This document shows, piece after piece, positions 30,655-64,000 of a DNA stretch of 64,000 nt. Made by a program: the position numbers and the translations under genes. Position 1 is the first letter of the stretch. Every line of letters starts with the position of its first letter. The stretch comes from Escherichia coli (GTDB lineage: Bacteria; Pseudomonadota; Gammaproteobacteria; Enterobacterales; Enterobacteriaceae): assembly GCF_029227855.1 (NCBI RefSeq), contig NZ_CP074356.1; one strand, given 5' to 3'. The notes under the pieces were generated by a model. It was not told the origin of the DNA. It saw only the letters and a list, made by a program, of their open reading frames with translations, and did no database searches.

Positions 30655-31830
<1,176 letters not shown>

Positions 31831-47730: not shown

Positions 47731-48897
47731 TTGAAACGCCGTCTTATTATTGCTGCTTCTTTGTTCGTTTTTAACTTATTGTCTGGTTTTGCGGCGGAAA
47801 ACATTCCTTTTTCACCTCAGCCTCCTGAGATTCATGCCGGCTCCTGGGTATTGATGGATTACACCACCGGTCAGATCCTCACCGCGGGTAATGAGCATCA
47901 ACAGCGCAATCCCGCCAGCCTGACAAAGCTGATGACGGGCTATGTCGTGGATCGTGCTATCGATAGTCATCGCATTACGCCAGACGATATTGTCACCGTG
48001 GGGCGTGATGCGTGGGCGAAAGATAATCCGGTGTTTGTCGGTTCTTCACTGATGTTTTTGAAAGAGGGCGATCGCGTATCGGTACGTGATTTAAGCCGTG
48101 GTTTAATTGTGGATTCCGGAAATGACGCTTGTGTTGCACTGGCTGACTATATTGCCGGTGGGCAACGGCAGTTTGTTGAAATGATGAACAACTATGCCGA
48201 GAAGCTGCATCTCAAGGATACGCATTTTGAAACAGTGCATGGTCTGGATGCACCAGGCCAGCATAGCTCGGCTTATGATTTAGCTGTGCTTTCTCGCGCT
48301 ATCATCCACGGCGAGCCCGAGTTTTATCATATGTACAGTGAGAAAAGTCTCACCTGGAACGGTATCACCCAGCAAAACCGTAACGGGTTATTGTGGGATA
48401 AAACCATGAATGTTGACGGCCTGAAAACGGGTCATACTTCTGGTGCCGGGTTTAATCTCATTGCTTCGGCTGTGGATGGGCAGCGTCGTCTCATTGCAGT
48501 GATAATGGGTGCTGACAGCGCAAAAGGTCGTGAGGAAGAGGCAAGAAAATTACTGCGTTGGGGGCAACAAAACTTTCCCACGGTGCAAATTTTGCACCGT
48601 GGGAAAAAGGTTGGTACGGAACGCATCTGGTATGGCGATAAAGAAAATATCGCCCTGGGAACGGAACAAGAGTTCTGGATGGTGCTACCGAAAGCCGAAA
48701 TTCCACATATCAAAGCCAAATATACCCTTGATGGTAAAGAGCTCACCGCGCCAATTAGCGCCCATCAGCGGGTAGGGGAAATTGAACTTTACGACCGTGA
48801 TAAACAGGTGGCGCACTGGCCGCTGGTTACCCTGGAATCTGTCGGGGAAGGCAGCATGTTTTCTCGCCTGAGTGATTATTTCCACCATAAGGCCTGA
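47731..48897 (+). CDS. dacD: D-alanyl-D-alanine carboxypeptidase DacD (PBP6b)
   Basis: 388 aa; apparent TTG start; active-site SLTK, SGN and KTG motifs present. Confidence 0.92.
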   Translation: MKRRLIIAASLFVFNLLSGFAAENIPFSPQPPEIHAGSWVLMDYTTGQILTAGNEHQQRNPASLTKLMTGYVVDRAIDSHRITPDDIVTVGRDAWAKDNPVFVGSSLMFLKEGDRVSVRDLSRGLIVDSGNDACVALADYIAGGQRQFVEMMNNYAEKLHLKDTHFETVHGLDAPGQHSSAYDLAVLSRAIIHGEPEFYHMYSEKSLTWNGITQQNRNGLLWDKTMNVDGLKTGHTSGAGFNLIASAVDGQRRLIAVIMGADSAKGREEEARKLLRWGQQNFPTVQILHRGKKVGTERIWYGDKENIALGTEQEFWMVLPKAEIPHIKAKYTLDGKELTAPISAHQRVGEIELYDRDKQVAHWPLVTLESVGEGSMFSRLSDYFHHKA

Positions 48898-48981
48898 CCT
48901 TTCTTTTGCAGCAGACTGGCAGGAGTGCGAGTCTGCTCGCATAATCAACACTCATTCCTTGTGGTTTTAATATTGCAACTA

Positions 48982-49001
48982 TACTGTATATAAAAACAGT
49001 A
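48982..49001 (+). promoter_or_regulatory. LexA (SOS) box upstream of sbmC
   Basis: tactgtatataaaaacagta matches the CTGT-N8-ACAG consensus, about 15 bp upstream of the sbmC ATG. Confidence 0.85.
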
Positions 49002-49015
49002 ATAATGGAGGCGTC

Positions 49016-49489
49016 ATGAACTACGAGATTAAGCAGGAAGATAAACGTACCGTTGCAGGTTTCCATCTCGTTGGCCCGTGGGAACAGACGGTAAAGAAAG
49101 GTTTTGAGCAGTTGATGATGTGGGTAGATAGCAAAAATATTGTGCCGAAGGAGTGGGTTGCTGTCTATTACGACAATCCGGATGAAACACCCGCCGAAAA
49201 ATTACGCTGCGACACCGTCGTGACGGTACCGAATAACTTTACGCTCCCCGAAAACAGTGAGGGCGTCATTCTGACAGAAATTTCAGGTGGTCAATATGCG
49301 GTGGCGGTGGCTCGTGTAGTCGGTGATGATTTTGCTAAACCCTGGTATCAGTTCTTTAATAGCCTCTTGCAGGACAGTGCTTATGAAATGTTACCAAAGC
49401 CCTGCTTCGAGGTTTACTTGAACAATGGCGCGGAAGATGGGTACTGGGACATCGAAATGTATGTTGCGGTGCAGCCAAAACATCACTAA
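49016..49489 (+). CDS. sbmC: DNA gyrase inhibitor SbmC (GyrI)
   Basis: 157 aa; [24 protein letters not shown]; SOS box upstream. Confidence 0.95.
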
Positions 49490-49686
49490 TTCATCTCAGG
49501 GCGGTGTGTTGACGCGAAGACCACTCTTTTTTTGAAAGCGAAAAGAGTAAGATGCGCCTTTCAAATTTTTCGCTCCTGCCGGGAAATTACACCGTTCCCG
49601 GTATGTCCGTCGGATAACTCAGAGGCGCGCCTTCTGGCCGACAGATGTGTTATGAGCGCTTTTAATCTTCATTACGGAGTTTCTGC

Positions 49687-50745
49687 GTGCGTGCCGATAA
49701 GTCATTAAGCCCGTTTGAAATCCGGGTATACCGCCATTACCGCATTGTGCATGGTACTCGGGTCGCGCTGGCATTCCTGCTCACTTTTCTCATTATCCGC
49801 CTGTTTACTATCCCGGAAAGCACCTGGCCGCTGGTCACCATGGTGGTGATTATGGGGCCAATCTCGTTCTGGGGGAACGTTGTCCCTCGTGCCTTCGAAC
49901 GTATTGGCGGTACGGTGTTGGGGTCGATTTTAGGTCTTATCGCTCTACAACTGGAGTTAATCTCGTTACCGCTGATGTTAGTCTGGTGCGCGGCGGCCAT
50001 GTTCCTTTGCGGTTGGCTGGCGCTGGGTAAGAAACCGTATCAAGGTTTATTGATTGGGGTGACGCTGGCAATTGTTGTTGGTTCCCCGACAGGTGAAATT
50101 GATACGGCGTTATGGCGAAGCGGCGATGTGATCCTCGGCTCTTTACTGGCAATGTTGTTTACCGGTATCTGGCCACAACGGGCGTTCATCCACTGGCGCA
50201 TTCAACTGGCAAAAAGTCTGACCGAGTATAATCGGGTCTATCAATCTGCATTCTCACCGAACTTACTCGAACGCCCGCGTCTGGAAAGCCATCTACAAAA
50301 ACTCCTGACCGATGCCGTGAAAATGCGTGGGCTGATTGCGCCCGCCAGCAAAGAAACTCGTATTCCAAAATCGATATATGAAGGTATCCAGACCATTAAC
50401 CGCAATCTGGTTTGTATGCTGGAGTTGCAAATCAATGCATACTGGGCCACGCGCCCCAGCCATTTCGTGTTATTGAACGCGCAAAAACTTCGTGATACCC
50501 AGCACATGATGCAGCAAATACTGCTGAGCCTTGTTCATGCGCTGTACGAAGGTAATCCGCAGCCGGTTTTTTCCAATACGGAAAAATTGAACGATGCTGT
50601 GGAAGAGCTGCGTCTGTTGCTTAATAACCACCATGACCTGAAGGTTGTGGAAACACCAATCTATGGTTATGTGTGGCTGAACATGGAAACGGCGCATCAG
50701 CTTGAGTTGCTATCGAATCTGATTTGCCGGGCCTTGCGCAAATAA
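49687..50745 (+). CDS. yeeA: Inner membrane protein YeeA (FUSC-like)
   Basis: 352 aa; GTG start; hydrophobic N-half. Confidence 0.88.
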   Translation: MRADKSLSPFEIRVYRHYRIVHGTRVALAFLLTFLIIRLFTIPESTWPLVTMVVIMGPISFWGNVVPRAFERIGGTVLGSILGLIALQLELISLPLMLVWCAAAMFLCGWLALGKKPYQGLLIGVTLAIVVGSPTGEIDTALWRSGDVILGSLLAMLFTGIWPQRAFIHWRIQLAKSLTEYNRVYQSAFSPNLLERPRLESHLQKLLTDAVKMRGLIAPASKETRIPKSIYEGIQTINRNLVCMLELQINAYWATRPSHFVLLNAQKLRDTQHMMQQILLSLVHALYEGNPQPVFSNTEKLNDAVEELRLLLNNHHDLKVVETPIYGYVWLNMETAHQLELLSNLICRALRK

Positions 50746-51794: not shown

Positions 51795-52145
51795 TCAGGT
51801 CCGCGTAATGGGGCAGGCGGTAAAGCGCATCATTTCACCCAGCGTACGGGTAACCTGGCTAAGTGCATATTCAATGGCAGAAACATCACCAGTCAGCACT
51901 ACGGCACCGGTAAAACGATCAAGAAAACCGATCTCTACAGCGCCTGATTTTGTGGCGATATCACATGCGATGATAGATGCTTCGCTGGGGGTAATTGTCA
52001 GAATGCCAATAGCAGAAACGGTGTCTGGTAAACCCAATTTCTTAAACAGATCCTTCCCTGGATTGGCGATGACATGTGCCAGCGTGACCTGCTTACCAGG
52101 GACATATTCCTGAATCATCCGTTCAGTTGTGTGCTGAGTTGTCAT
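51795..52145 (-). CDS. pduU: PduU, BMC shell protein (circularly permuted BMC domain)
   Basis: 116 aa from [32 protein letters not shown]; near-identical to recalled Salmonella PduU. Confidence 0.9.
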
Positions 52146-52699
52146 TATCCCTCCACCATCTGACGCCACATGGCTTCATGTGGACGGGCAATCACCGACC
52201 GATAGACCAACAAACCTTTTTCTCCCGCACGCTCGCTGGCGACAGAGACCGCGTTATTAACATCTGAAATATCGCCAGCAACCACCATGTAGCATTTACC
52301 GCCAATGCCAAAAGCCATATGCACGCGAACAAGAATGACATTCGCAGCTTTGACAGCACAATCGGCAGCGTCAATGCAGGCGGCGACACTCCAGGTTTCG
52401 ACTACGCCGACAGCCCGGTGCTGTTCAACTTGGTTCAGTCCGCTGGTTGCAGAAAGGAGGCTGGGATGAATATTCGGCAGGACAAGACTGTCGACCAGCA
52501 TTTCACCAGCAAGGGAAGCACCGCTGTTGATGGCCTGTTGCACCGCGCCCACATCGCCACCGAGCATCAGCAGAAATTTTCCGGGGCATAGCGTTTTGCT
52601 GACCAGTAACTCAACGTTGGCGCTTTTCAGCATGGCGTCGCCGGTTTCCATCCCTTTCGCGATACTGCTAAGTTCTAAAATACCTACCGCTTTCGACAT
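52145..52699 (-). CDS. pduT: PduT, tandem-BMC-domain shell protein
   Basis: 184 aa with two BMC domains; [29 protein letters not shown]. Confidence 0.9.
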
Positions 52700-52701
52700 C
52701 G

Positions 52702-54045
52702 TTAACCTCTCACAAGCGTAATCGCGTTTTCTGTCACATCGCTGACCATGCCATCAATACTGGCATGAATGGGGGCACCTAATGTGCCGTGTGGAATTTG
52801 ACCTACACATTGCCCATGAACGACGCGATCGCCTTTTTGTACACACGCAATTGCGCTGGCACCGATGTGCTGGCGTAACAATAACGTCACTTTTTCGGTC
52901 TGAGGCACCTGTTCAGACAATGGCGCATCCTGATACCACGGGGTTAAGCCAAGTCTGGTTACCAGCCGTTTTACGGGAATCAGTCGATAATTTGCCATGG
53001 GATCTGCAGGATTTAAGGTACCTTCGTAACGGAGATTTTGTGCGCGTAATTCTTGCTTAAGCAGGCGGTTTATGCGCATTGGTGAAATTCCTACCGGACA
53101 GGCGACGCTGGCGCAGACGTTGCACTCCGAACAGGTGAGCGCCGTCAGTAACAGTTGTGGCGTAGCGAGCTGTTGGTAGTTAACCGCACGTACTAATAAA
53201 TGGGGTGCCAGTTCGTGACCGATTAAATGACGTGGGCAGAGATCGGTACACAAGCGGCATTGCTCACAAACAGTTTTCGCGACGGCAAGTACGCTGCGGT
53301 CATTCTGCATTCGACGTTGGATCAGTGAATGAGAGTTGGGTAAAACCAGCAAGCCGCCAGTGGTTTTGCTGACTGGTGTGTCGAGCGATGTGATCAAACT
53401 TCCCATCATCGGCCCGCCATTGATAAAACCAGGAGCATCCACTGTTGCGCCGCCCGCCAGCGCCAGGACTTCACGTAAAGACATGCCGATGGGGACGGTT
53501 ACCGTTATTGGTTTCGCCACTGCACCATTAACGGTGAGTGTGCGGCGCGTCACTGGATACTGTTGCTCGACGGCTCTGGCAATATTAAGTACGGTTTGAA
53601 CATTATTGACCACCACACCGACGTTAACGGGTAATGCAGCGGGTGGAACACGGCGACCAGTTGCCATCCAGATGGTCAGCACTTCGTCTCCTGCGGGGTA
53701 AACGTCGGGCAAAATATGCAGGCGGATATCCGGTGGTAACAGTGGTGTGAGTGCGTTTATTGCCCGTTGATATTTCTCTTTCAGCGCGATGATTCCGCTA
53801 CTGGCCCCGGTGGCTTTCATCGCATAGTGAACACCGCGAAGCAGGCGGCTGGCTTGCTGCGCCATTAACTGTTGATCCACTTTCAACATTGGTTCGCATT
53901 CCGCCGCATTCACCAGGAACGTGTCAACACGCGCTTGTAGCTTAATATGGGTTGGGAAACCTGCGCCGCCAGCACCCACGACACCAGCTGCCTGTACTCG
54001 CTCGCGGATGGTCTGGTCGTCGCAGGAGGTTAACTCGACGTTCAT
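52702..54045 (-). CDS. pduS: PduS, cobalamin reductase (RnfC/NuoF-like flavoprotein with two 4Fe-4S motifs)
   Basis: 447 aa; GAGGAGFP nucleotide-binding motif; Cys clusters [12 protein letters not shown] and [13 protein letters not shown]. Confidence 0.9.
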
Positions 54046-55154
54046 AACAACTCCTCGAGCAGTTCTGCAATAGCGGTGGCATCAGCCGTACGCGGGTTGG
54101 TACGCAACGTTGCATCCGCCAGTGCCGCCTGAACCATATCTGGTATGCGTATTGACCATTCTGCTTTTTTTTCTTTCAGCACATTGGTAAGAGTCGGTAG
54201 CTTACAGGTTGTTTTAAGCTGTTCAATATGTTGAATAAGTATATTCAGGCTGGCGGTGTCATTGGCGTTGTCCGGGCATAAATGGCACGTTTTCGCCAGC
54301 CGGGCGTAGCGTTTGGCAGCGCGCGGATCGCCAGCATTAAAGCGGATAACCGCCGTGAGCAGGAGCGCATTCGCCAGGCCGTGTGGCAGATGAAACTGTC
54401 CGCCGAGTTGATGAGCAATTGCATGGTTTAATCCCAGTCCAGCTTGGCTAAAGGCCATTCCTGCAAGTGTCGATGCATTATGCATTTTGCCACGGGTGGC
54501 GAGACAATCGCCTTTCTTCACTGCAGTGGGCAGGTATTGAAAAACAATTTGCACGGCTTTTTCGACCAGTGCATCCGTGAAGTCGCTGGCGCGGGGAGAA
54601 ACATAAGCTTCAAGCGCATGGGTTAAAACATCCATCCCGGTATTGGCCGTTATCGCCGGTGGCACGCTGACGATCAGAGATGGATCAAGGATCGCGATAT
54701 CCGGATAAAGTGCATTATCGAAAAGGGGATATTTAATCCCTTTCTCAGGATCGCTGATGACACAAGCACTGGTCACTTCGGAACCGGTACCGCTGGTGGT
54801 AGGAATGGCTACGCAGGTTTCAATTTCAATGCCACACTGGCGACCGAACCAGACAATCGCTTTTGCGGCGTCCAGGGCAGAACCGCCGCCAAAACCGATA
54901 ACCACATCCGGGCGTAAAGTCTGCATTTGCGCAATGCCTTTCACCACGGTCTGGATAGTTGGGTCGGGCGTTATTTCGCTAAAAATACTAAGACGATTAC
55001 TGTCGGGCAGCGCCTGATGCAACGTGTTAATGAGTGGTGAGCGTGCCAGAAAGACGTCGCAAATAATCCAGATGTGTTTATGAGAGAAACGGCTAAGTAC
55101 CTTGAGACTTCCCGGTCCGCTGTATAAACGCGTCTGCAGTGAAAAAGTATTCAT
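54042..55154 (-). CDS. pduQ: PduQ, iron-containing 1-propanol dehydrogenase
   Basis: 370 aa; Fe-ADH family glycine-rich region GFGGGSALDAAKA. Confidence 0.9.
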   Translation of the reverse strand: MNTFSLQTRLYSGPGSLKVLSRFSHKHIWIICDVFLARSPLINTLHQALPDSNRLSIFSEITPDPTIQTVVKGIAQMQTLRPDVVIGFGGGSALDAAKAIVWFGRQCGIEIETCVAIPTTSGTGSEVTSACVISDPEKGIKYPLFDNALYPDIAILDPSLIVSVPPAITANTGMDVLTHALEAYVSPRASDFTDALVEKAVQIVFQYLPTAVKKGDCLATRGKMHNASTLAGMAFSQAGLGLNHAIAHQLGGQFHLPHGLANALLLTAVIRFNAGDPRAAKRYARLAKTCHLCPDNANDTASLNILIQHIEQLKTTCKLPTLTNVLKEKKAEWSIRIPDMVQAALADATLRTNPRTADATAIAELLEELL

Positions 55155-55164
55155 TTCCGTTTCT

Positions 55165-56550
55165 CTAGCGAATTGAAAAGCCGCTGGTTAACACGCAGCG
55201 TCGTGAGCGGGCAAAAGTCCGTGCTGACGTTGTCCCTTCTCCGGTCGGTGTTGCAATGGTAAAGGTCGTAAAGCCTTCGCCGCCGACGCCAATACCCGCC
55301 CAGGAGGGGCCGTTTTTGACAAAGATTGAGGTTTGCATAACGCGTGCGGTAAGGTTGAGCCGTGAGACGTTCTGCGAGTGCATAATTGCCGTGTGGTGCA
55401 AGCCGTCTTCCACTTTCAGCGCCAGGGTGAGAGCGCTATCAAAATCGTTGACCTTCACAATGGGCAGCATTGGCATCAGTTGTTCACAAGTAACCCAACT
55501 ATCATTGGCGTCGACAACAGCAATCAGTAGGCGCGGCGCTTTTGCGGGCAAAGGGAGGCCTGCCGCTTCCAGCAAGGCTGATGGGCTTTTCCCAACCAGT
55601 TTTTTGTTGGCGCTACCGTCTGGCAGGCAAATTGCACGCAATTTCTCCGTTTGCTCATAGTTAAGAAGAAGCGCGCCAAAACTTTGCATCTGCTGAATTA
55701 AATAATCTGCCACTGATGCCACGACAATCAGGCTTTTTTCAGCAATACACGGCAGGTTGTAATCAAATGAAGCGCCGTTGATGATGTCCTCGGCGGCTTT
55801 CACAATATCCGCCGTTTCATCGACGATGCACGGAGGGTTACCCGCTCCGGCACCAATCACTTTCTTGCCACTTTTCATTCCCATGGCGACGATCCCCGGA
55901 CCGCCGGTAATCGCCAGAACGCTGATTTTAGGGTGCGCCATCATCTGTTCGGTTGCAGCAAAGGTCGGTTCAGATACGGTAACGATCAGGTTATGAATGC
56001 CACTACAACGAAACGCGATGTCTTCGATTGTGGTAATCAGTTTTAACGAAACGTATTTGGCTCCCGGGTGTGGACTGAAGTAGACGCTATTACCTGCTGC
56101 CAGCATGCTGATGCTGTTGTTAATGATGGTTTCCGTGGGGTTGGTGCTTGGCGTGACCGAGCCAATAACCCCAAACGGGGAGTATTCAAACAAAACCATG
56201 CCACCATCACCGGTTAGTGCAGTGGTGGTTAAATCTTCAATTCCTGGCGTGTTATCAAGTGCCGCTTTGTTTTTTAGGTACTTATCTTCTTTATTTCCCA
56301 TCCCCGTTTCTTTGGCGCTTTCTTCTGCCAGTTCGGTCAGGCGGGGTATTAATTCTTCGCGAATGGCGCTGATAATGGCGCTACGGGTTTTAAGCGGGCA
56401 CTGTTGAAAGCGTAAAAAGGCCTGGTGTGCTGCGCAGACCGCTTCATCAACAGTCTGGAAAATAGCGTTTCTTTGCATTCGTTGCGTAGCGGGGGCAAGC
56501 TGCTCACGCAGAATATTGCGGATCAGTGTTTCTAATTCAGAGTTATTCAT
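55165..56550 (-). CDS. pduP: PduP, CoA-acylating propionaldehyde dehydrogenase
   Basis: 461 aa aldehyde dehydrogenase with N-terminal amphipathic extension MNNSELETLIRNILREQL. Confidence 0.92.
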   Translation of the reverse strand: MNNSELETLIRNILREQLAPATQRMQRNAIFQTVDEAVCAAHQAFLRFQQCPLKTRSAIISAIREELIPRLTELAEESAKETGMGNKEDKYLKNKAALDNTPGIEDLTTTALTGDGGMVLFEYSPFGVIGSVTPSTNPTETIINNSISMLAAGNSVYFSPHPGAKYVSLKLITTIEDIAFRCSGIHNLIVTVSEPTFAATEQMMAHPKISVLAITGGPGIVAMGMKSGKKVIGAGAGNPPCIVDETADIVKAAEDIINGASFDYNLPCIAEKSLIVVASVADYLIQQMQSFGALLLNYEQTEKLRAICLPDGSANKKLVGKSPSALLEAAGLPLPAKAPRLLIAVVDANDSWVTCEQLMPMLPIVKVNDFDSALTLALKVEDGLHHTAIMHSQNVSRLNLTARVMQTSIFVKNGPSWAGIGVGGEGFTTFTIATPTGEGTTSARTFARSRRCVLTSGFSIR

Positions 56551-57554
56551 TGGTTTACTCCCACGTTAATTGCCGCCATTGCGCTTTGGGCAATATCCAT
56601 GTCTTGTTCAACGCTACCACCGCTGATGCCAAGCCCCCCGAGCAATATTCCGTCACGCCAGAGGGGGAAGCCGCCACCAAAGGTGACGACTTTGCCTTGC
56701 ATATGGCTTTCGAGCCCGTAAAGCGGCGCGCCGGGTTGCACGGTATCAGCAAGTTTGTGGGTTGCCGTTTTCATCGCCACGGCAGTCCAGGCTTTTTTCG
56801 GTGCCAGTTCACTGCTGACCAACAGGGCATCAGGCATCCGCCAGGTAACACTTTCTGTTCCGTTGGCATCAACAATGCTGATGACAACGGGAATATGCAG
56901 TTCATCCGCGCGCATTGCCGCACTACGAATGAGCTGGTGAAGATCCTGAAAAGTGAGCGGCATTGTGCGTTCCTTCAATGCTGGTGTGTGGTTGGCTTTG
57001 TGATAACGTTTTGTGATTTCCTGAATTATCAGGTTTTGATGAGCGACGTTGTCTTCCACGCGGGCGAGGGCATACAGGCAATCGGAAAGTCGGTTGATAT
57101 AGTGCAGCAAAACATTCCGGACGGTGATTTCCGTTGTCAGTTCAACCAGACGTCTTTCAGCACGTCGAGCCACCGTGCGGGCGAAATGCATACGGCTTGC
57201 AGCTTCACATCGCCCAGGCAGAATGAAGCTGTGAACTGGGGGGACGGCGTTCATTGCGCTATCGATCGCGTTTTCCAGCGCGGCAATTTCTTCCGTACCG
57301 ATGTAACGCAGCTGCGCTGACGGCTGTTCGCTTTCACTGGCAAGTTCGGCGCTAAACCAAAATATCTGTTGTTGAATGGCTTCCAGTAAGATGCGATGGC
57401 TTTCGATGGCGGTGGCGCAATAACACAGACTGAGTGTCGCGTTCAGTTCATCCAGCGTGCCATAGGTTTCGACACGTAGATGAGTTTTGCTGACGCGCTG
57501 TCCGGTAAATAAAGACGTACTTCCTGAATCACCTGTTCGGGTATAAATTGCCAT
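56547..57554 (-). CDS. pduO: PduO, ATP:cob(I)alamin adenosyltransferase with C-terminal DUF336 domain
   Basis: 335 aa; MAIYTRTGDSGSTSLFTGQRVSK N-terminus typical of PduO-type ATR. Confidence 0.92.
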   Translation of the reverse strand: MAIYTRTGDSGSTSLFTGQRVSKTHLRVETYGTLDELNATLSLCYCATAIESHRILLEAIQQQIFWFSAELASESEQPSAQLRYIGTEEIAALENAIDSAMNAVPPVHSFILPGRCEAASRMHFARTVARRAERRLVELTTEITVRNVLLHYINRLSDCLYALARVEDNVAHQNLIIQEITKRYHKANHTPALKERTMPLTFQDLHQLIRSAAMRADELHIPVVISIVDANGTESVTWRMPDALLVSSELAPKKAWTAVAMKTATHKLADTVQPGAPLYGLESHMQGKVVTFGGGFPLWRDGILLGGLGISGGSVEQDMDIAQSAMAAINVGVNQ

Positions 57555-57565
57555 CTTTCAGCTCC

Positions 57566-57841
57566 TTAGCGCGAAAGCGTATCGACAATGCCGACCACTG
57601 CCAGGTCGATGGCCTCGTTAGGGCCGGAAAACACATGTCTGGCGCTGGAACCACTGCTGAGGAGTACCAACTCACCAACGCCTGCGCCGACTGAATCAAC
57701 GGCAACTTCGTCGCCGGTTAATGGCGTGAGAGGCAGTTCGCCGTCAGCACTGACCCGGCGAACCAGCAGCAGTTTTTTCCCGATCAGAGATGGTGATTTT
57801 TGCGTGGATACTACCGCGCCAGTGACTCGAGCCAGATGCAT
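57566..57841 (-). CDS. pduN: PduN, BMC vertex (pentamer) protein of the EutN/CcmL family
   Basis: 91 aa; [17 protein letters not shown]. Confidence 0.9.
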
Positions 57842-57844
57842 AGG

Positions 57845-58336
57845 TTACTCCTGCCTAATTAACTGAATATTTCGGGTAATTGCCGCTTCACGAGCCAGTG
57901 CGGTCACACAACATTTCCGCTGTAACACCAGTATTCCCGAGCTTAACTGTGCGATATCGGCATAACTTAAAAGTCGATCACGATGAAGGTAGATCGGTTG
58001 CCCTTGTTCGTCGCACCAGCTTAGCGGTAGACGGGCGAGAGTCTTCAATTCAATGGCGTTCAGGAAATGACGCTGCAACGACAATTGAATGTGCATTCCC
58101 CAGGCTAACGCTTCGTGTATCTGGATTGCTGCTCGATCTGACGTTTCGTTCTCCGCAAGTTGTCGCAGCAGCGGCAGATCGACATATCGGATTTGTAATG
58201 ACGCATACTGATGAACGCTCTCTTGAACGCTGGCGTCTCGCAGTTGAAAAACAGTCAGCACGAGTGCTTTTCTCGCACGTTGTTTAAGGCGAAAAACCAC
58301 CTCGTCAACAATACGTTGCATCAGCATGTTATTCAT
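57845..58336 (-). CDS. pduM: PduM, microcompartment structural protein
   Basis: 163 aa; position between pduL and pduN; length matches recalled Salmonella PduM. Confidence 0.8.
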   Translation of the reverse strand: MNNMLMQRIVDEVVFRLKQRARKALVLTVFQLRDASVQESVHQYASLQIRYVDLPLLRQLAENETSDRAAIQIHEALAWGMHIQLSLQRHFLNAIELKTLARLPLSWCDEQGQPIYLHRDRLLSYADIAQLSSGILVLQRKCCVTALAREAAITRNIQLIRQE

Positions 58337-58965
58337 GGCACTGACACCAGTGTGGCAAAAACGTCAGGGCTATCAGCGCCTGCGGCGTTGGCCTCATCGG
58401 TATCAATATGCATTTCAAGACGCATATCCGGAGAGACGCGAACAGCGACGTTTTCGAATATCAGTCGTCGCTCACCACCTTCAATGGCAACCGCCACTTT
58501 ATCGCCATGCGTAACGCCATAAATCAGGGCATCCAGCGGAGACATATGAATATGCCGTTGCGCGACAATGACGCCAGATGTGATCTCCAGTTCCGCAAAT
58601 GGGCTTATCAAACGAATCCCCGGAGTGCCGCTGAGATCGCCTGACATGCGTAGCGGGGCGGTGATCCCTAACGTTCTGGCGTCCGTCCGGGAAATTTCCA
58701 CCTGGCTTGCATTGCGTAGCGGCCCCAACAAGCGAACGTTGTGCAATTTGCCTTTTGGTCCCTCCAGCGTAACAACCTGTTCAGCAGCGAATTGGCCAGG
58801 TTGCATTAACGGCTTTTTCTCGCTAATCGGTTGTTCAGGAAAAAGACGCAAATAATCCGCTGTTGAAAGATGAATATGGCGACTGGAAACGCCCAGTGGG
58901 ATAGGGCGCTCGCGCATCTCATCCAGAATCTGGCTCACTGTTTCCTGCAGGGTTTGTTTATCCAC
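58333..58965 (-). CDS. pduL: PduL, phosphate propanoyltransferase
   Basis: 210 aa; N-terminal MDKQTLQETVSQILDEM amphipathic peptide followed by PduL/EutD-type domain. Confidence 0.9.
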   Translation of the reverse strand: MDKQTLQETVSQILDEMRERPIPLGVSSRHIHLSTADYLRLFPEQPISEKKPLMQPGQFAAEQVVTLEGPKGKLHNVRLLGPLRNASQVEISRTDARTLGITAPLRMSGDLSGTPGIRLISPFAELEITSGVIVAQRHIHMSPLDALIYGVTHGDKVAVAIEGGERRLIFENVAVRVSPDMRLEMHIDTDEANAAGADSPDVFATLVSVP

Positions 58966-58967
58966 TG

Positions 58968-59390
58968 CTACTCCCCTCGCTTATTGGCGTACAGGCAAAG
59001 TGAGCGGGGCTCACCTTTTTGCCGCTGACATGCCGGGTCAAGACACAAATTACAACTGATAATCTCTGAGGTGACGGTTGTTGCTGGTGTTTTGCTTGTT
59101 TCAACCGTCACGGTCAATGCTTCAATTGTGTGGGGCAGAATGCCGTCTCCCGGGCGGGCAATCACTTTGTGTGCGACAAGGCCATTTCGCTGTCCGGCGA
59201 AACTGGCTCCCGTCGCGATCGCCGCATTAACCGAGGCGACGTCACCGGTGATTTTGATGAGCGTCCAGCCTGAGCCATTGGTCTTCTCAAGGCCAACCAG
59301 CGTGATGGACGCGGCTTTTGCCATAGCGTCTGCGCAACTGATGGCGAGAGCCAGACCACTGACTTCAAGTAATCCCAGTGATTGCTTCAC
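58968..59390 (-). CDS. pduK: PduK, BMC shell protein with Cys-rich C-terminal extension
   Basis: 140 aa; N-terminal BMC domain MKQSLGLLEVSGLALAISCADAMAKAA; C-terminal CNLCLDPAC...C. Confidence 0.88.
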   Translation of the reverse strand: MKQSLGLLEVSGLALAISCADAMAKAASITLVGLEKTNGSGWTLIKITGDVASVNAAIATGASFAGQRNGLVAHKVIARPGDGILPHTIEALTVTVETSKTPATTVTSEIISCNLCLDPACQRQKGEPRSLCLYANKRGE

Positions 59391-59413
59391 GCTGTGCTCC
59401 TTAGCGAATGGGG

Positions 59414-59689
59414 TTATGCTGATTTAGGTAAAATAGCCTCAACATCACTGTGTGGGCGCGGGATGACATGGCAGGATTTCACTTCGCCAACGGCGCTTGC
59501 GGCGGCGCTTCCTGCATCAACGGCGGCTTTTACTGCGCCAACATCGCCACGGACCATCACCGTAATCAGACCCGAACCAATCTTTTCATAGCCAACCAGC
59601 TGCACGTTGGCGGATTTAACCATGGCATCTGCAGCTTCAATTGCGCCAACTAACCCTTTTGTTTCAACCAGTCCTAGTGCGTTGTTCAT
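59414..59689 (-). CDS. pduJ: PduJ, major BMC hexamer shell protein
   Basis: 91 aa; [40 protein letters not shown]. Confidence 0.9.
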
Positions 59690-59708
59690 ACTGCATTTCT
59701 CCTGTGGA

Positions 59709-60059
59709 TTATGAGTGGAGTTCCCGGAAGGGAATCCCTTTTACCAGGCGGGCAGCGTTAGAGCCAATGCTGCGCCGGGCATGGTTATCTTGTTGATACA
59801 TCAGCGTAAACAGTGGCGCTGATGCCGGTAAGTTTTTGTAATGCACAATCAGTTTTTCCTGATCGCAGGCAATGCCAACCAACAGGGGAGATTGACTAGC
59901 AGCCAGCCAGGCGCTATCGATAACTTCACCTGACGGAATGTGTTGAATGCGAAAGGGAATACCTTCCTCTTCAATGCCAAGAAGCACCTCATCCCATATA
60001 GTGATGCAGTTACCGATCTCCATGACGACGATGGCTGGTGCACGCTCTTTACTTTCCAT
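59709..60059 (-). CDS. pduH: PduH, diol dehydratase reactivase small subunit
   Basis: 116 aa; start overlaps the pduG stop; position after pduG. Confidence 0.85.
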
Positions 60060-61881
60060 GAATCGACTCCTTGTGCCAGGCGATGAGTAGCCCAGTAGCT
60101 ACCGCGTTGCGCGGACCTTCGCTACCACGGATATTCCCCCGTCCGGCGACCAATCGATAATGCGCCAATGCATCGGTGACTAACTGCGGTACTTCGAAAT
60201 CCAGCGAAGAACCGCCCACCAGAACGACGAACGGAATATCGCGAATATTTCCGGCAGGGCTTACCTGACGTAGCGCGCGCAGGGCATTGGTTACGAAGAC
60301 ACGCTCTTTCGCACTGCGGCGGACAGCGCGTACTTTTTCCAGCGTCAAATCACCGGGAATGGGCACCAGTTCGTCGGGTTTCACTACACAGACGCGGGCA
60401 AATACATGGGGGGATAGGGGAGTAGGGAAGAACTGAACGCTGCCATCTTCATGGCGTAAGTGGAACAGGCTTTCTACTTTTGCCAACGGGTACTTTTTGA
60501 TTTCTTCTGCCAGATAACGATCATTTAAGCCCAGCTCACGAGCGATAATCATCGTTACCATGTCGCCCGCTCCCGCAAGGTGAGTGGCAACAATTTCTCC
60601 TTTCTGATTGATGATGGAGGCATCGGTAGAGCCTGCACCTAAGTCCAGAATTGCCAGTGGACGTGTGGTTCCAGGGGTAGTCAAGGCCCCCTGAATGGCG
60701 GCTTCTGCTTCTGCGCCTCCGACCTGAACATCAACATGCAGTTTTTGCTTAATTTCACTGGCGATCATTGCCATTTGCAGACGGTCGGATTTCACCATAG
60801 AGGCAATACCCACAGCCTGTTCCAGTGAAAATTCACCTGCCAGACCGCCGGTTACGCTGACGGGGACAGAGGTATCTATCGCCAGCAAATCCTGAATAAA
60901 AATTTCGTTGCTGGGTTTGTTGGTCAGTTCCGCCATGGTCTGGCGAACATGTTCCAGCATTCCGCCGATGTTGGTGCCTGGTTCTCCCGTCACGTTTTCC
61001 AGTTTTGGGCACTCACCGACCGCTTTCATAATGGCATCGGCACCAGCAGCTACATCAACGCGCGTTGTGCGCCCGGCAGAAAGCAGTTCGATATTTCCGG
61101 CGGGTATCGAACGGGCTTTAACGTCGCCAGAAGGCGTTTTCACTACCACTGCTGAACGGTTGCCGATTAGCGCCCGCGCGACAGGAACAATATTTTTAGT
61201 CTCTTCAGCATTGAGGGCGAAAACGGTGGCAATCCCATACGGGTTAGACAGGGTTTCGATAACTTTCCCGGGAACGGCAACTTCAATTGCAGCCAGCATG
61301 CCGAGCGGAATACGATCGATGTAGAGGACTTCATCAACAATAGGTACAGCAATTTCCAGGCGGTTACTGACCAGCACGCCATCGTCGCGTTGCAGAATAA
61401 CGCCAGTCAGCTGATATCCGGCACGTACGGAGGCGTTTATCATCGTCGCGATATCGGCAAAATCAAATGCCGATGACACCACCAGGATGTAAGGTGTGTC
61501 CGCCGGGCGTGTTAATAACTCTTGCGGAGTGATGGTGAGCCCTACGCCCAGCCCCACTCCGCCCGGAGTTTTCGGGTTGTGACCGATCATGGTTGATTCG
61601 GTGATGATGGTTTCAGTGATGGTTTCCATCGCCACATCACCAATGACCGGAGTTGCTTCGTTGATACGAATAAGCGAAATATCGCTAACATTGATGCCGA
61701 CTTTTTTCGTTGCCTGTGCGAGCGCCTCCTGAATACCATGGACGTTACGCAACGTACCTTTAATTCCGGTGGTTTCCGCCAGGGCGCTACTCACGAACGA
61801 CAACTCTCCAGTTGCACTGAGCGTTGCCAGCGCAACCTCTGTTGATGAGTTGCCGATATCAATGCCTGCTATATATCGCAT
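60049..61881 (-). CDS. pduG: PduG, diol dehydratase reactivase large subunit
   Basis: 610 aa; MRYIAGIDIGNSSTEVALA N-terminus (ASKHA ATPase fold). Confidence 0.92.
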   Translation of the reverse strand: MRYIAGIDIGNSSTEVALATLSATGELSFVSSALAETTGIKGTLRNVHGIQEALAQATKKVGINVSDISLIRINEATPVIGDVAMETITETIITESTMIGHNPKTPGGVGLGVGLTITPQELLTRPADTPYILVVSSAFDFADIATMINASVRAGYQLTGVILQRDDGVLVSNRLEIAVPIVDEVLYIDRIPLGMLAAIEVAVPGKVIETLSNPYGIATVFALNAEETKNIVPVARALIGNRSAVVVKTPSGDVKARSIPAGNIELLSAGRTTRVDVAAGADAIMKAVGECPKLENVTGEPGTNIGGMLEHVRQTMAELTNKPSNEIFIQDLLAIDTSVPVSVTGGLAGEFSLEQAVGIASMVKSDRLQMAMIASEIKQKLHVDVQVGGAEAEAAIQGALTTPGTTRPLAILDLGAGSTDASIINQKGEIVATHLAGAGDMVTMIIARELGLNDRYLAEEIKKYPLAKVESLFHLRHEDGSVQFFPTPLSPHVFARVCVVKPDELVPIPGDLTLEKVRAVRRSAKERVFVTNALRALRQVSPAGNIRDIPFVVLVGGSSLDFEVPQLVTDALAHYRLVAGRGNIRGSEGPRNAVATGLLIAWHKESIHGK

Positions 61882-61890
61882 AGTTCGTCC

Positions 61891-62409
61891 TTAATCGTCG
61901 CCTTTCAGTTTTTTGCGCTCGACATAAAGTTCCGCAGCTTCACGGACAAATGCAGCACAAATTTTGGCCTGATAACGCCGTTCAAGATCGTCAGCAATGG
62001 CAATAAGTTCTTGCTTAGTCGAACGATAAGGGCGTAACGCATTGTAGATTTCGAGGATGCGATCATCCGGTACTGAGGTAAGCTCAGCGGCGCGTTCAAA
62101 ATTCATCGCCAGGCGATCGCGACCAGCATCTCTGGCAATCGCGGCCTGAATACGCAATGTTTCAGGGGTTATACGCATATCCTGGGCGGTGACGTTATCG
62201 CTGAGTACATTTTCCAGAGTGAAATCGTCGAGCGTTTTATTGGTCGCCGTTTTAACCCATTCCGGATGTTTATTTGCCAGCGGATAATCCGTCACTTTGG
62301 CGCTCTGTATTGACGCGTTGGGTGCCGCAGAAACAGGAGCTGCATCCTGTAAACTGTTCATGCGATTCAACACGTCCCTGACCATCGACTCAATTGCATC
62401 GGTATTCAT
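61891..62409 (-). CDS. pduE: PduE, B12-dependent diol dehydratase small (gamma) subunit
   Basis: 172 aa; matches recalled PduE. Confidence 0.9.
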   Translation of the reverse strand: MNTDAIESMVRDVLNRMNSLQDAAPVSAAPNASIQSAKVTDYPLANKHPEWVKTATNKTLDDFTLENVLSDNVTAQDMRITPETLRIQAAIARDAGRDRLAMNFERAAELTSVPDDRILEIYNALRPYRSTKQELIAIADDLERRYQAKICAAFVREAAELYVERKKLKGDD

Positions 62410-62423
62410 GAAGGTTTCCTTTG

Positions 62424-63092
62424 TTAAAACGTCACGCGCAGTTCTTGCGGTTTTTTGCCAGTGACCACGTACTTCGTCTCTTTAATATGCAAAATGGCAG
62501 ATTTGGCCTGGTATTTCGGCCGCGCCATTTGATCGTTGAGGGTCGGCACCGGTTGTGGAGACTCACGCTTTGCATAACGCGCGGCGTTTTTGCCAATCTG
62601 ACGATAAGTTTCCAGCGTCAACAAAGGCGCTTGTGGGAATAGTTCCAGGTTAGACAAGGGAGGAAGACCTTGCTGGTGGATAACCGTTGTGCCTTTCGAC
62701 TGAATACCGATAGCAATACCTGAACCACTAAGACGATCGCCTTCGACTGCTACGAATGCGACATCGGACGATTTAAAGCAGCGAATCACACGGGCTTTAA
62801 TGCCTTCTTCTTCGATACCAGCAATCACTTCGCGCAAGATGTTTTTATGCGGAATACCGATGATATTGACGGTTTGCGCCAGGCCGAACGCCGGGCCTAC
62901 AGCAATAATGACTTCATCTTGCTGAGTGCCTTGTTGGGCTTCGCCAATTTCGGCCAGAAAAGTTCCGGTATCTGGCGCGGAAGAGACAGTTGCACAGGCA
63001 GGTGCGCGAAATGAAACGGGCTTGTCGCTGGTTTGCATTTCTGCCAGCACGTCTTCGATAATCTGACGCAGTAATTTTTCGTTAATTTCCAT
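62424..63092 (-). CDS. pduD: PduD, B12-dependent diol dehydratase medium (beta) subunit
   Basis: 222 aa; N-terminal [19 protein letters not shown] amphipathic peptide. Confidence 0.92.
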
Positions 63093-63101
63093 TTCTCACC
63101 C

Positions 63102-64000
63102 TTAGTCAATTTCGTTGGGATCAAGTGCACCGGGAATATTTTTGATCTCTTCCCAGCGTTCCCCTTGCAGGCGGTAACCTGTAGCCGGTCCGGCGTAATC
63201 ATTGACGTCATTGACCGCAGAGAGCACTTGTCCGTCATCGACGATGATGGCTGAGGTATGGAGATAATCGCCGGTCAGTTTTGCTTTTTGCATGTTGAGC
63301 ATGTCTTGGGCGACATCGGTAAAACCGCCTTGCGCCAGGGCTTTCACCACTTCCAGGCTGTTCCGGTTTTTATTGATAATCTCCTGGGCGAACTTGATGT
63401 CTTCCACAATATTGCGCTCAGGCATATCTTTTGAACCGTGGGCATAGGTTGCCGCTTCGACTTCTTCATCGGTAATAGGCGGTAGTCCCATACCGGCAAA
63501 GACAGCCTGTAAAGCGCGAGCGGCTTTATTGCGGATAGCGATAACATCTTCTTCGCGTACTGGTCGCAGGCCGCCATCAACCTTCAGGTCACGCTGAATG
63601 ACGTTGTAATCATCGAAGTCTTCAGCATCTTCGTTTGAACCAGCAAACATGTTGTCGTAGTTCGGCACAGCGGAAAAACCGGAAGAGATAAAGTCGGTAC
63701 CTGGCAGAAACTGCATCAGGAAACGTGCGGTACGGCGCATATCCGAGTGGGTAAAGGTCTGGTCATTACTGGAGGCGCATTCCAGATCCAGCGATGAGCA
63801 AATTAAGTTTTCCGCTAATACTGCGCGGATGCCTGATGGCACAGCCGATGGAACACCGATGCAGCTTACCGAACCATTCTGTAGACCCTGAACTCCTGCG
63901 GCTTTGGTGATGTAAATGCAACGAGCCTCGAGATAAAGCATTGATTTGCCTTCCGCGTAACCCATCTGTACTTCAGAGCCGGAGCCGGAAGTAAAGCGCA
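63102..64000 (-). CDS. pduC: PduC, B12-dependent diol dehydratase large (alpha) subunit, C-terminal part (5' end outside window)
   Basis: Frame open to the window edge; roughly 299 C-terminal codons including ...GPATGYRLQGERWEEIKNIPGALDPNEID-stop. Confidence 0.9.
   Translation of the reverse strand, partial: RFTSGSGSEVQMGYAEGKSMLYLEARCIYITKAAGVQGLQNGSVSCIGVPSAVPSGIRAVLAENLICSSLDLECASSNDQTFTHSDMRRTARFLMQFLPGTDFISSGFSAVPNYDNMFAGSNEDAEDFDDYNVIQRDLKVDGGLRPVREEDVIAIRNKAARALQAVFAGMGLPPITDEEVEAATYAHGSKDMPERNIVEDIKFAQEIINKNRNSLEVVKALAQGGFTDVAQDMLNMQKAKLTGDYLHTSAIIVDDGQVLSAVNDVNDYAGPATGYRLQGERWEEIKNIPGALDPNEID

Follow-up and report, generated by a model that had tools for sequence, protein, structure and literature searches.

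What is the palindrome that lies immediately upstream of sbmC (gyrI) in this Escherichia coli DNA, and does it have any function other than binding LexA? Within the window (the whole 64-kb stretch that was analysed), a direct read of the plus strand places the LexA box TACTGTATATAAAAACAGTA at exactly 48982–49001; these same positions are occupied by the sequence tactgtatataaaaacagta. We conclude that 48982–49001 is almost certainly the LexA operator of the E. coli sbmC promoter, which makes it an already known feature, a textbook SOS operator. The box and the elements around it are:

48982..49001, no strand assigned: LexA operator (SOS box) TACTGTATATAAAAACAGTA, from sequence, a heterology index (HI) of 0.95 and identity to K-12
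48984..48987, no strand assigned: left half-site core CTGT, invariant in five E. coli alleles
48996..48999, no strand assigned: right half-site core ACAG, which is ACAG or CCAG in 37 of 37 intact Enterobacteriaceae loci other than the window
48979..48985, plus strand: candidate −10 element CTATACT of the sigma-S type (C at −13 plus TATACT), proposed from sequence
48985..48997, plus strand: approximate transcription start region (about 48990), from a K-12 tiling array (PMC3009722 Table 8)
49007..49011, plus strand: Shine-Dalgarno sequence GGAGG of sbmC, from sequence and conserved in nearly all orthologous loci
49016..49489, plus strand: coding sequence of sbmC (gyrI), 157 aa, the regulated gene, from the open reading frame, Pfam, NCBIfam and RefSeq

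A preliminary description of this DNA, made from the sequence alone, had called the site a near-consensus LexA box of the form CTGT-N8-ACAG with an AT-rich spacer. Both parts of that claim hold. The pattern is present at 48982–49001 with two perfect cores, its single occurrence in the 64-kb window, and the box matches the consensus TACTG(TA)5CAGTA at 18 of 20 positions, the two mismatches (positions 12 and 14) both falling in the spacer. Heterology-index scoring, which the same description had put forward as a check, was performed with a Berg-von Hippel matrix derived from the 18 aligned SOS boxes in Table 4 of PMC3009722; the sbmC box and the umuD box, which is an identical 20-mer, were excluded, leaving 16 published E. 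coli boxes. With this leave-out matrix the sbmC box has an HI of 0.95, better than 15 of the 16 training sites. When both strands of the window were scanned, the runner-up at another position scored 9.26, and in 40 first-order Markov simulations of the 64-kb window the best site had an HI of at least 7.36 (median 10.5). By its match to the consensus, its HI and its conservation upstream of sbmC orthologues, the box fits the class of E. coli-type LexA operators. The runner-up itself, the LexA-like 20-mer TTCTGCATAGCTATCCAGTT at 31301–31320 on the minus strand, falls within the coding sequence of ugd, has a score in the chance range, and was rejected as a second operator.

The downstream gene is the gyrase inhibitor gene that the preliminary description took it to be. 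Its product scores 302.8 bits (cutoff 179) with the NCBIfam equivalog NF007451, "DNA gyrase inhibitor SbmC", over residues 1–157 of 157, and also matches the Pfam GyrI-like family (E = 6.8e-33); RefSeq annotates the gene as sbmC in E. coli DNA that is 100% identical. The gene order in that annotation is dacD / sbmC / yeeA; the neighbours of sbmC are sbcB, dacD and the FUSC-family gene yeeA. The window is E. coli chromosome: a 1-kb stretch around the box is 100% identical to E. coli MS8345, and 5,419 of 5,426 complete E. coli genomes contain it. According to published titles and abstracts, tolerance to gyrase poisons such as microcin B17, albicidin, cystobactamids and phleomycin is affected by the dosage of sbmC.

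On a larger scale, identity to MS8345 is about 98–99% from roughly 36 to 48 kb of the window, falls to about 78% and about 90% in the flanking blocks, and gives way to non-collinear DNA outside about 32–52 kb. The MS8345 counterpart is flanked by gnd and the O-antigen and colanic-acid clusters on one side, and by CP4-44-like prophage genes (cbtA/cbeA, Ag43) on the other. Since positions 1–32000 and 52000–64000 of the window are not collinear with MS8345, the source strain differs in these variable regions.

A gap of 14 nt lies between the box and the sbmC ATG (49016), and 5 nt separate the box from the Shine-Dalgarno sequence. Its left arm is overlapped by the candidate −10 element CTATACT. 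The sigma-S −10 consensus consists of a C at −13 followed by TATACT, and TATACT or TATAGT is found at the equivalent place in E. coli, Enterobacter and Lelliottia. A −10 of this type at sbmC agrees with the control by RpoS that is named, together with H-NS, in the title of Oh et al. 2001 (cited in PMC6231494). In Table 8 of PMC3009722, the 100-nt sequence given upstream of the sbmC transcript that UV induces in K-12 opens with AGGCCTGACC, which corresponds to position 48890 of the window; hence, the K-12 transcript would start at about 48990, inside the box, a value that is approximate given that the intergenic probes of the tiling array were spaced down to 7 nt apart. A simple sigma-70 scan found no promoter over the box, its sole match lying upstream (CTGGCA-18-CATAAT, 48916–48945); such a scan would miss a −10 of the sigma-S type that lacks a −35, and we therefore gave its silence over the box no weight. 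The preliminary description had also placed the box over the likely sbmC promoter. The candidate −10 across the left arm and the K-12 start near 48990 support this overlap and stop short of proving it, the start being approximate and the sigma-70 scan silent.

Between the dacD stop codon and the sbmC promoter, a stem-loop spans 48908–48945, with GCAGCAGACT and AGTCTGCTCGC separated by 12 nt; the 60-nt stretch that holds it (48891–48950) has an RNA minimum free energy of −22.9 kcal/mol. It is followed by CATAAT, has no U-tract and has no match in Rfam, and it overlaps the sole sigma-70-like match of the scan. An Rfam search of 48500–49700 returned two sub-threshold matches to miRNA models only and no known RNA family. 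Enterobacter, Lelliottia, Leclercia and Pseudenterobacter share the stem-loop, which in Leclercia shows a compensatory change (GCAGGCT...AGCCTGC); in the group of Klebsiella, Pluralibacter and Citrobacter, its place is taken by an ordinary terminator and TGTGAA-N-CGCACATACT.

We propose that, in undamaged cells, a LexA dimer would occupy the two CTGT/ACAG half-sites. Bound LexA would keep RNA polymerase off the promoter, the box extending over both the −10 element and the start site as these are placed above. Upon DNA damage, RecA filaments would promote self-cleavage of LexA, the operator would be vacated and sbmC would be transcribed; SbmC would then bind DNA gyrase and protect the cell from both gyrase poisons and DNA-damaging agents. 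In the source strain, sbmC should be SOS-inducible, as in K-12.

The second part of our question concerns mobile DNA. We consider it very likely that the 20-mer is also a specific integration site, a reading that adds to the LexA explanation and does not compete with it. Among 5,417 E. coli genomes, the match to the dacD–sbmC intergenic region is interrupted in about 276, and the break is at the LexA box. Two elements, an insertion sequence (IS) and a group II intron, account for the interrupted regions.

The IS is 1,316 bp long, belongs to the ISL3 family, is annotated as "ISKox3 family", and carries DDE_Tnp_ISL3, HTH and Zn-ribbon domains. It was located at:

L003:4085-5430, E. coli PRO_A-1496: IS in the sbmC box
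L132:1340-2695, E. coli strain 81: IS in the sbmC box
L110-L131, viral contigs: IS copies

Within the sbmC box, the IS is preceded by TACTGTATATAAAA and followed by ATATAAAAACAGTA, junctions that reveal an 8-bp target duplication corresponding exactly to the operator spacer, the N8 between CTGT and ACAG; the IS would thus cut on both sides of the spacer. Queries for the junction between IS and sbmC box found the IS in both orientations, in 132 and 163 genomes, indicating at least two insertion events; together these numbers exceed the 276 interrupted genomes, and the similarity of the IS ends makes an overlap between the two counts probable. In roughly 5% of complete E. coli genomes, the sbmC box is occupied by the IS. 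Many of the carriers are probably clonal, and hence this proportion does not represent that many independent events. An unbiased scan of viral contigs with the IS end yielded 22 copies, in all of which the left flank ends in (C/A)TG(T/G) plus 8 nt. Wherever both ends were present (14 of 14 copies), the duplicated 8 bp are the spacer of a LexA 20-mer that, once reconstructed, has an HI of 0.95–6.1. The regularity of the left flank, the coincidence of duplication and spacer, and the presence of this IS inside the sbmC box of E. coli all argue for integration at LexA operators.

A search of the IS-occupied sbmC locus found no remaining LexA-like site with an HI of 9 or below, and the insertion moves the native −10 element 1.3 kb away from sbmC. 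From its position, the IS is predicted to abolish SOS control of sbmC, uncoupling the gene from LexA in the approximately 5% of complete E. coli genomes that carry it there.

The second element, a Kl.pn.I5-like group II intron, is 1,909 nt long and scores 180.6 bits with Rfam RF02005. The protein that it encodes scores 373.7 bits with TIGR04416; RVT_1 is the sole intron-related Pfam match, a search of Pfam found no endonuclease domain in the protein, and its nearest solved relatives are IIC reverse transcriptases. The copies considered here are:

L039:430-2345, minus strand, K. michiganensis: intron
L004:2090-3998, E. coli O68:H12 strain 97.3: intron
L132:2695-4603, E. coli strain 81: intron
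L047-L109, viral contigs: intron copies
L135:12052-13960, pK245: intron

In K. michiganensis DSM 25444, the intron is inserted between positions 19 and 20 of the sbmC box: ATACAGT is followed directly by the first intron bases, GTGCGCC, and the last, CGCGAC, by ATTTTATC. The junction between intron and sbmC is present in seven E. coli genomes, and in E. coli strain 81 the IS and the intron are nested in one sbmC box. A viral-contig scan with the first 19 nt of the intron identified 66 copies, of which 62 lie directly after the ACAGT (or ACAGC or CCAGT) of a LexA box; the sequences around these 62 represent 30 or more contexts, with differing spacers. The other four comprise three tandem copies, intron after intron, and one located elsewhere. 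The recurrence of the intron after LexA boxes in so many contexts, and its presence at the sbmC box in both Klebsiella and E. coli, again favour a specific integration site. A candidate EBS1, ACUGU, lies about 235 nt into the intron and would be complementary to the right arm of the box.

In the viral contig IMGVR_UViG_2880021599_000003 (L095:6088-13700), four head-to-tail introns follow one LexA box at a spacing of 1,909 nt, each later copy beginning directly after the 3′ end of the preceding one. In E. coli O68:H12 strain 97.3 (L004:1809-4040), the 5′ exon of the intron is the LexA box of a divergent, truncated gene for a UmuD-like S24 peptidase in prophage-like DNA, ending in TACTGCATATACATACAGT; the 3′ exon is the sbmC leader, and there is no dacD within 4 kb upstream. 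This locus looks like a rearrangement by recombination between intron copies in two LexA boxes.

The 3′ exon of the intron usually starts with A, so that position 20 of the box is restored after the element; with the G of the intron itself at position 20, the occupied box has an HI of 2.9. The intron would therefore leave a usable operator and, when in the sense orientation, would lie inside an SOS-controlled transcript. Of 17 readable cases, 12 have a gene on the same strand after the intron, DinI-like and UmuD-like genes among them. The idea that the intron always lies in the sense orientation with respect to the regulated gene was rejected in view of clear antisense cases, including that at umuD on pK245.

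Among plasmids, the intron was found in 4,252 of 72,556 (5.9% of PLSDB), 3,750 of them from Klebsiella. Plasmid pK245 carries the reference copy of Kl.pn.I5 (PMC3522654), to which our intron is 92% identical over its full length; the pK245 copy follows TTACTGGTTATACATACAGT, beside umuD. PMC3522654 infers a consensus Kl.pn.I5 homing site, with no mention of LexA, SOS or umuD.

Two points weigh against the integration-site reading. The 64-kb window contains no copy of either the ISKox3-family IS or the Kl.pn.I5-like intron, and the sbmC box at 48982–49001 is therefore an empty site; and selection after insertion is an alternative to targeting. We nevertheless have little doubt that the targeting of LexA operators by both elements is real. 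Whether it is previously undescribed is an even call: we found no description of operator targeting by an ISKox3-family IS or a group II intron in the searchable literature, which is not proof of novelty. The joint claim, that LexA operators, that of sbmC among them, serve two unrelated mobile elements as a dedicated niche for insertion, with targeting both real and previously undescribed, is accordingly tentative, a little short of an even chance. Recognition may involve base pairing plus a hairpin, recognition of the palindrome by a protein, or guidance by bound LexA. As single-stranded DNA the box folds weakly (−3.3 kcal/mol, with a 6-bp stem), which neither supports nor excludes hairpin recognition by the intron. 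If the targeting is as we propose, the use of a repressor's operator as a homing site would be an unusual principle of target selection, and insertions would rewire or abolish the SOS control of individual genes. We attach more weight to this by-product of the analysis than to the re-identified operator.

Returning to the operator itself, the preliminary description had predicted SOS induction, and published data for K-12, whose box is identical, support this. K-12 sbmC is UV-induced, and its box ranks first in the MEME SOS-box motif from UV-induced genes (PMC3009722, Table 4 for the motif). It is classed as a classical SOS gene with a published HI of 2.8, is induced 5.7-fold by AZT, and after AZT is expressed at a 9.5-fold lower level in lexA3, which encodes an uncleavable LexA (PMC11228462 Table 1). 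The review PMC6590174 includes sbmC in its table of SOS genes, and PMC10886550, in the passage citing Baquero 1995, describes GyrI as SOS- and stationary-phase-induced and as protecting against mitomycin C. By analogy, we expect the induction of sbmC in the source strain to depend on LexA. The Salmonella sbmC gene has a single box, located 21 bp from the ATG, with an HI of 6.32; the gene is induced 3.55-fold by nalidixic acid (PMC8072944 Table 1) and belongs to a class with LexA-independent ON subpopulations (PMC8072944).

It is conceivable that the operator is real and LexA is a minor input, sbmC being governed mainly by RpoS and H-NS in stationary phase and the box acting merely as a brake. 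The title of Oh et al. 2001 and the sigma-S-like −10 (CTATACT) are compatible with this idea, as is the induction of sbmC by the stringent response (PMC6590174). Moreover, umuD is induced 56-fold by AZT (PMC11228462 Table 1); induction of sbmC is thus about ten times weaker despite identical operators, implying that other inputs shape the output. However, the 9.5-fold lower post-AZT expression in lexA3, the rank of the box among the best-fitting of the regulon and its strong conservation all point the other way, and we regard a minor role for LexA as improbable.

That the box is an AT-rich palindrome arisen by chance, or ordinary promoter DNA, and has no LexA function is a negligible prospect: the region is indeed AT-rich promoter DNA, and the bare 16-nt pattern CTGT-N8-ACAG is by itself unsurprising, since it has at least one match in 35 of 100 dinucleotide-preserving shuffles of the window (mean 0.5), but the full 20-mer has none in the 100 shuffles even with up to three mismatches and is therefore far beyond chance, its HI lies well below that of any simulated site, a box stands at the same place in 37 of 37 orthologous loci, and LexA-dependent induction has been published for the identical K-12 site (PMC11228462).

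The conservation of the LexA operator was examined within E. coli and across the family. In five E. coli alleles (95.8–100% identity), 19 of the 20 box positions are invariant and only position 20 varies, being A or G. Polymorphism clusters just outside the box, at 48975–48981, at 49002–49003 and in the Shine-Dalgarno sequence. Comparison of the window with L002, L005 and L006 shows that the variable points of an otherwise invariant 118-nt intergenic region adjoin the box; they comprise the last base of the box itself (A or G), the two bases after the box (AT, TC or TT), the Shine-Dalgarno sequence (GGAGG, GGGGG or GG-GA) and the hexamer TTGCAA. The 3′ cluster of polymorphisms (49001–49012) begins exactly at the insertion point of the group II intron.

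For the wider comparison, we searched a single genome of each species for the SbmC motif WVAVYYDNP, written as a degenerate pattern. We obtained 40 loci, 37 of them intact, from Enterobacter, Lelliottia, Leclercia, Klebsiella, Raoultella, Pluralibacter, Citrobacter, Silvania, Pseudenterobacter and Escherichia. Within the 200 nt upstream, each of the 37 intact loci has its best LexA-like site 14–24 nt from the start codon. The HI at that site is 8 or below in 34 of the 37, as compared with 0.01% of 7,523 background 60-nt windows from the same loci. When the orthologous loci are aligned, the flanks have diverged, and TGTAT-N-ATACAGT and GGAGG stand out. A separate observation concerns Escherichia sp. 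MOD1-EC7003 (L036), in which the LexA box upstream of the sbmC homologue is deleted, with TTGCAAACATACTG joined to ATTGGAGGCGTC, and the sbmC frame is truncated to 83 aa; this lineage seems to be losing operator and gene in parallel.

How does the operator in the window compare with known systems? The sbmC box of K-12 is the identical 20-mer, placed identically with respect to sbmC and again within dacD-sbmC-yeeA. Strain-level differences between the two loci fall outside the box only: the two bases that follow it are TC in K-12 and AT in the window, and the upstream TTGCAA region differs by one base (ATTTTG in K-12, ATATTG in the window). The K-12 umuDC operator is likewise exactly the same 20-mer, TACTGTATATAAAAACAGTA (PMC3009722 Table 4), and is among the tightest-fitting boxes of the regulon, whereas the umuD promoter context and output differ from those of sbmC. 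The sbmC boxes of other Enterobacteriaceae also form a LexA-like palindrome 14–24 nt upstream in every intact locus, with a higher HI (median 5.4 with the leave-out matrix). Most of the other genera have a good right arm and an HI of about 3.4–8, whereas the promoter-distal arm is degenerate (TAGTGT in Enterobacter; ATGT in Klebsiella and Raoultella), giving a left core of GTGT or ATGT. In the boxes from Escherichia (the window, L012 and L015), and in no others, two canonical arms (CTGT plus either ACAG or CCAG) go together with the lowest HI values, 0.95–2.9. Judged by these arms and scores, the comparison suggests that LexA would repress sbmC more tightly in E. coli than in its relatives.
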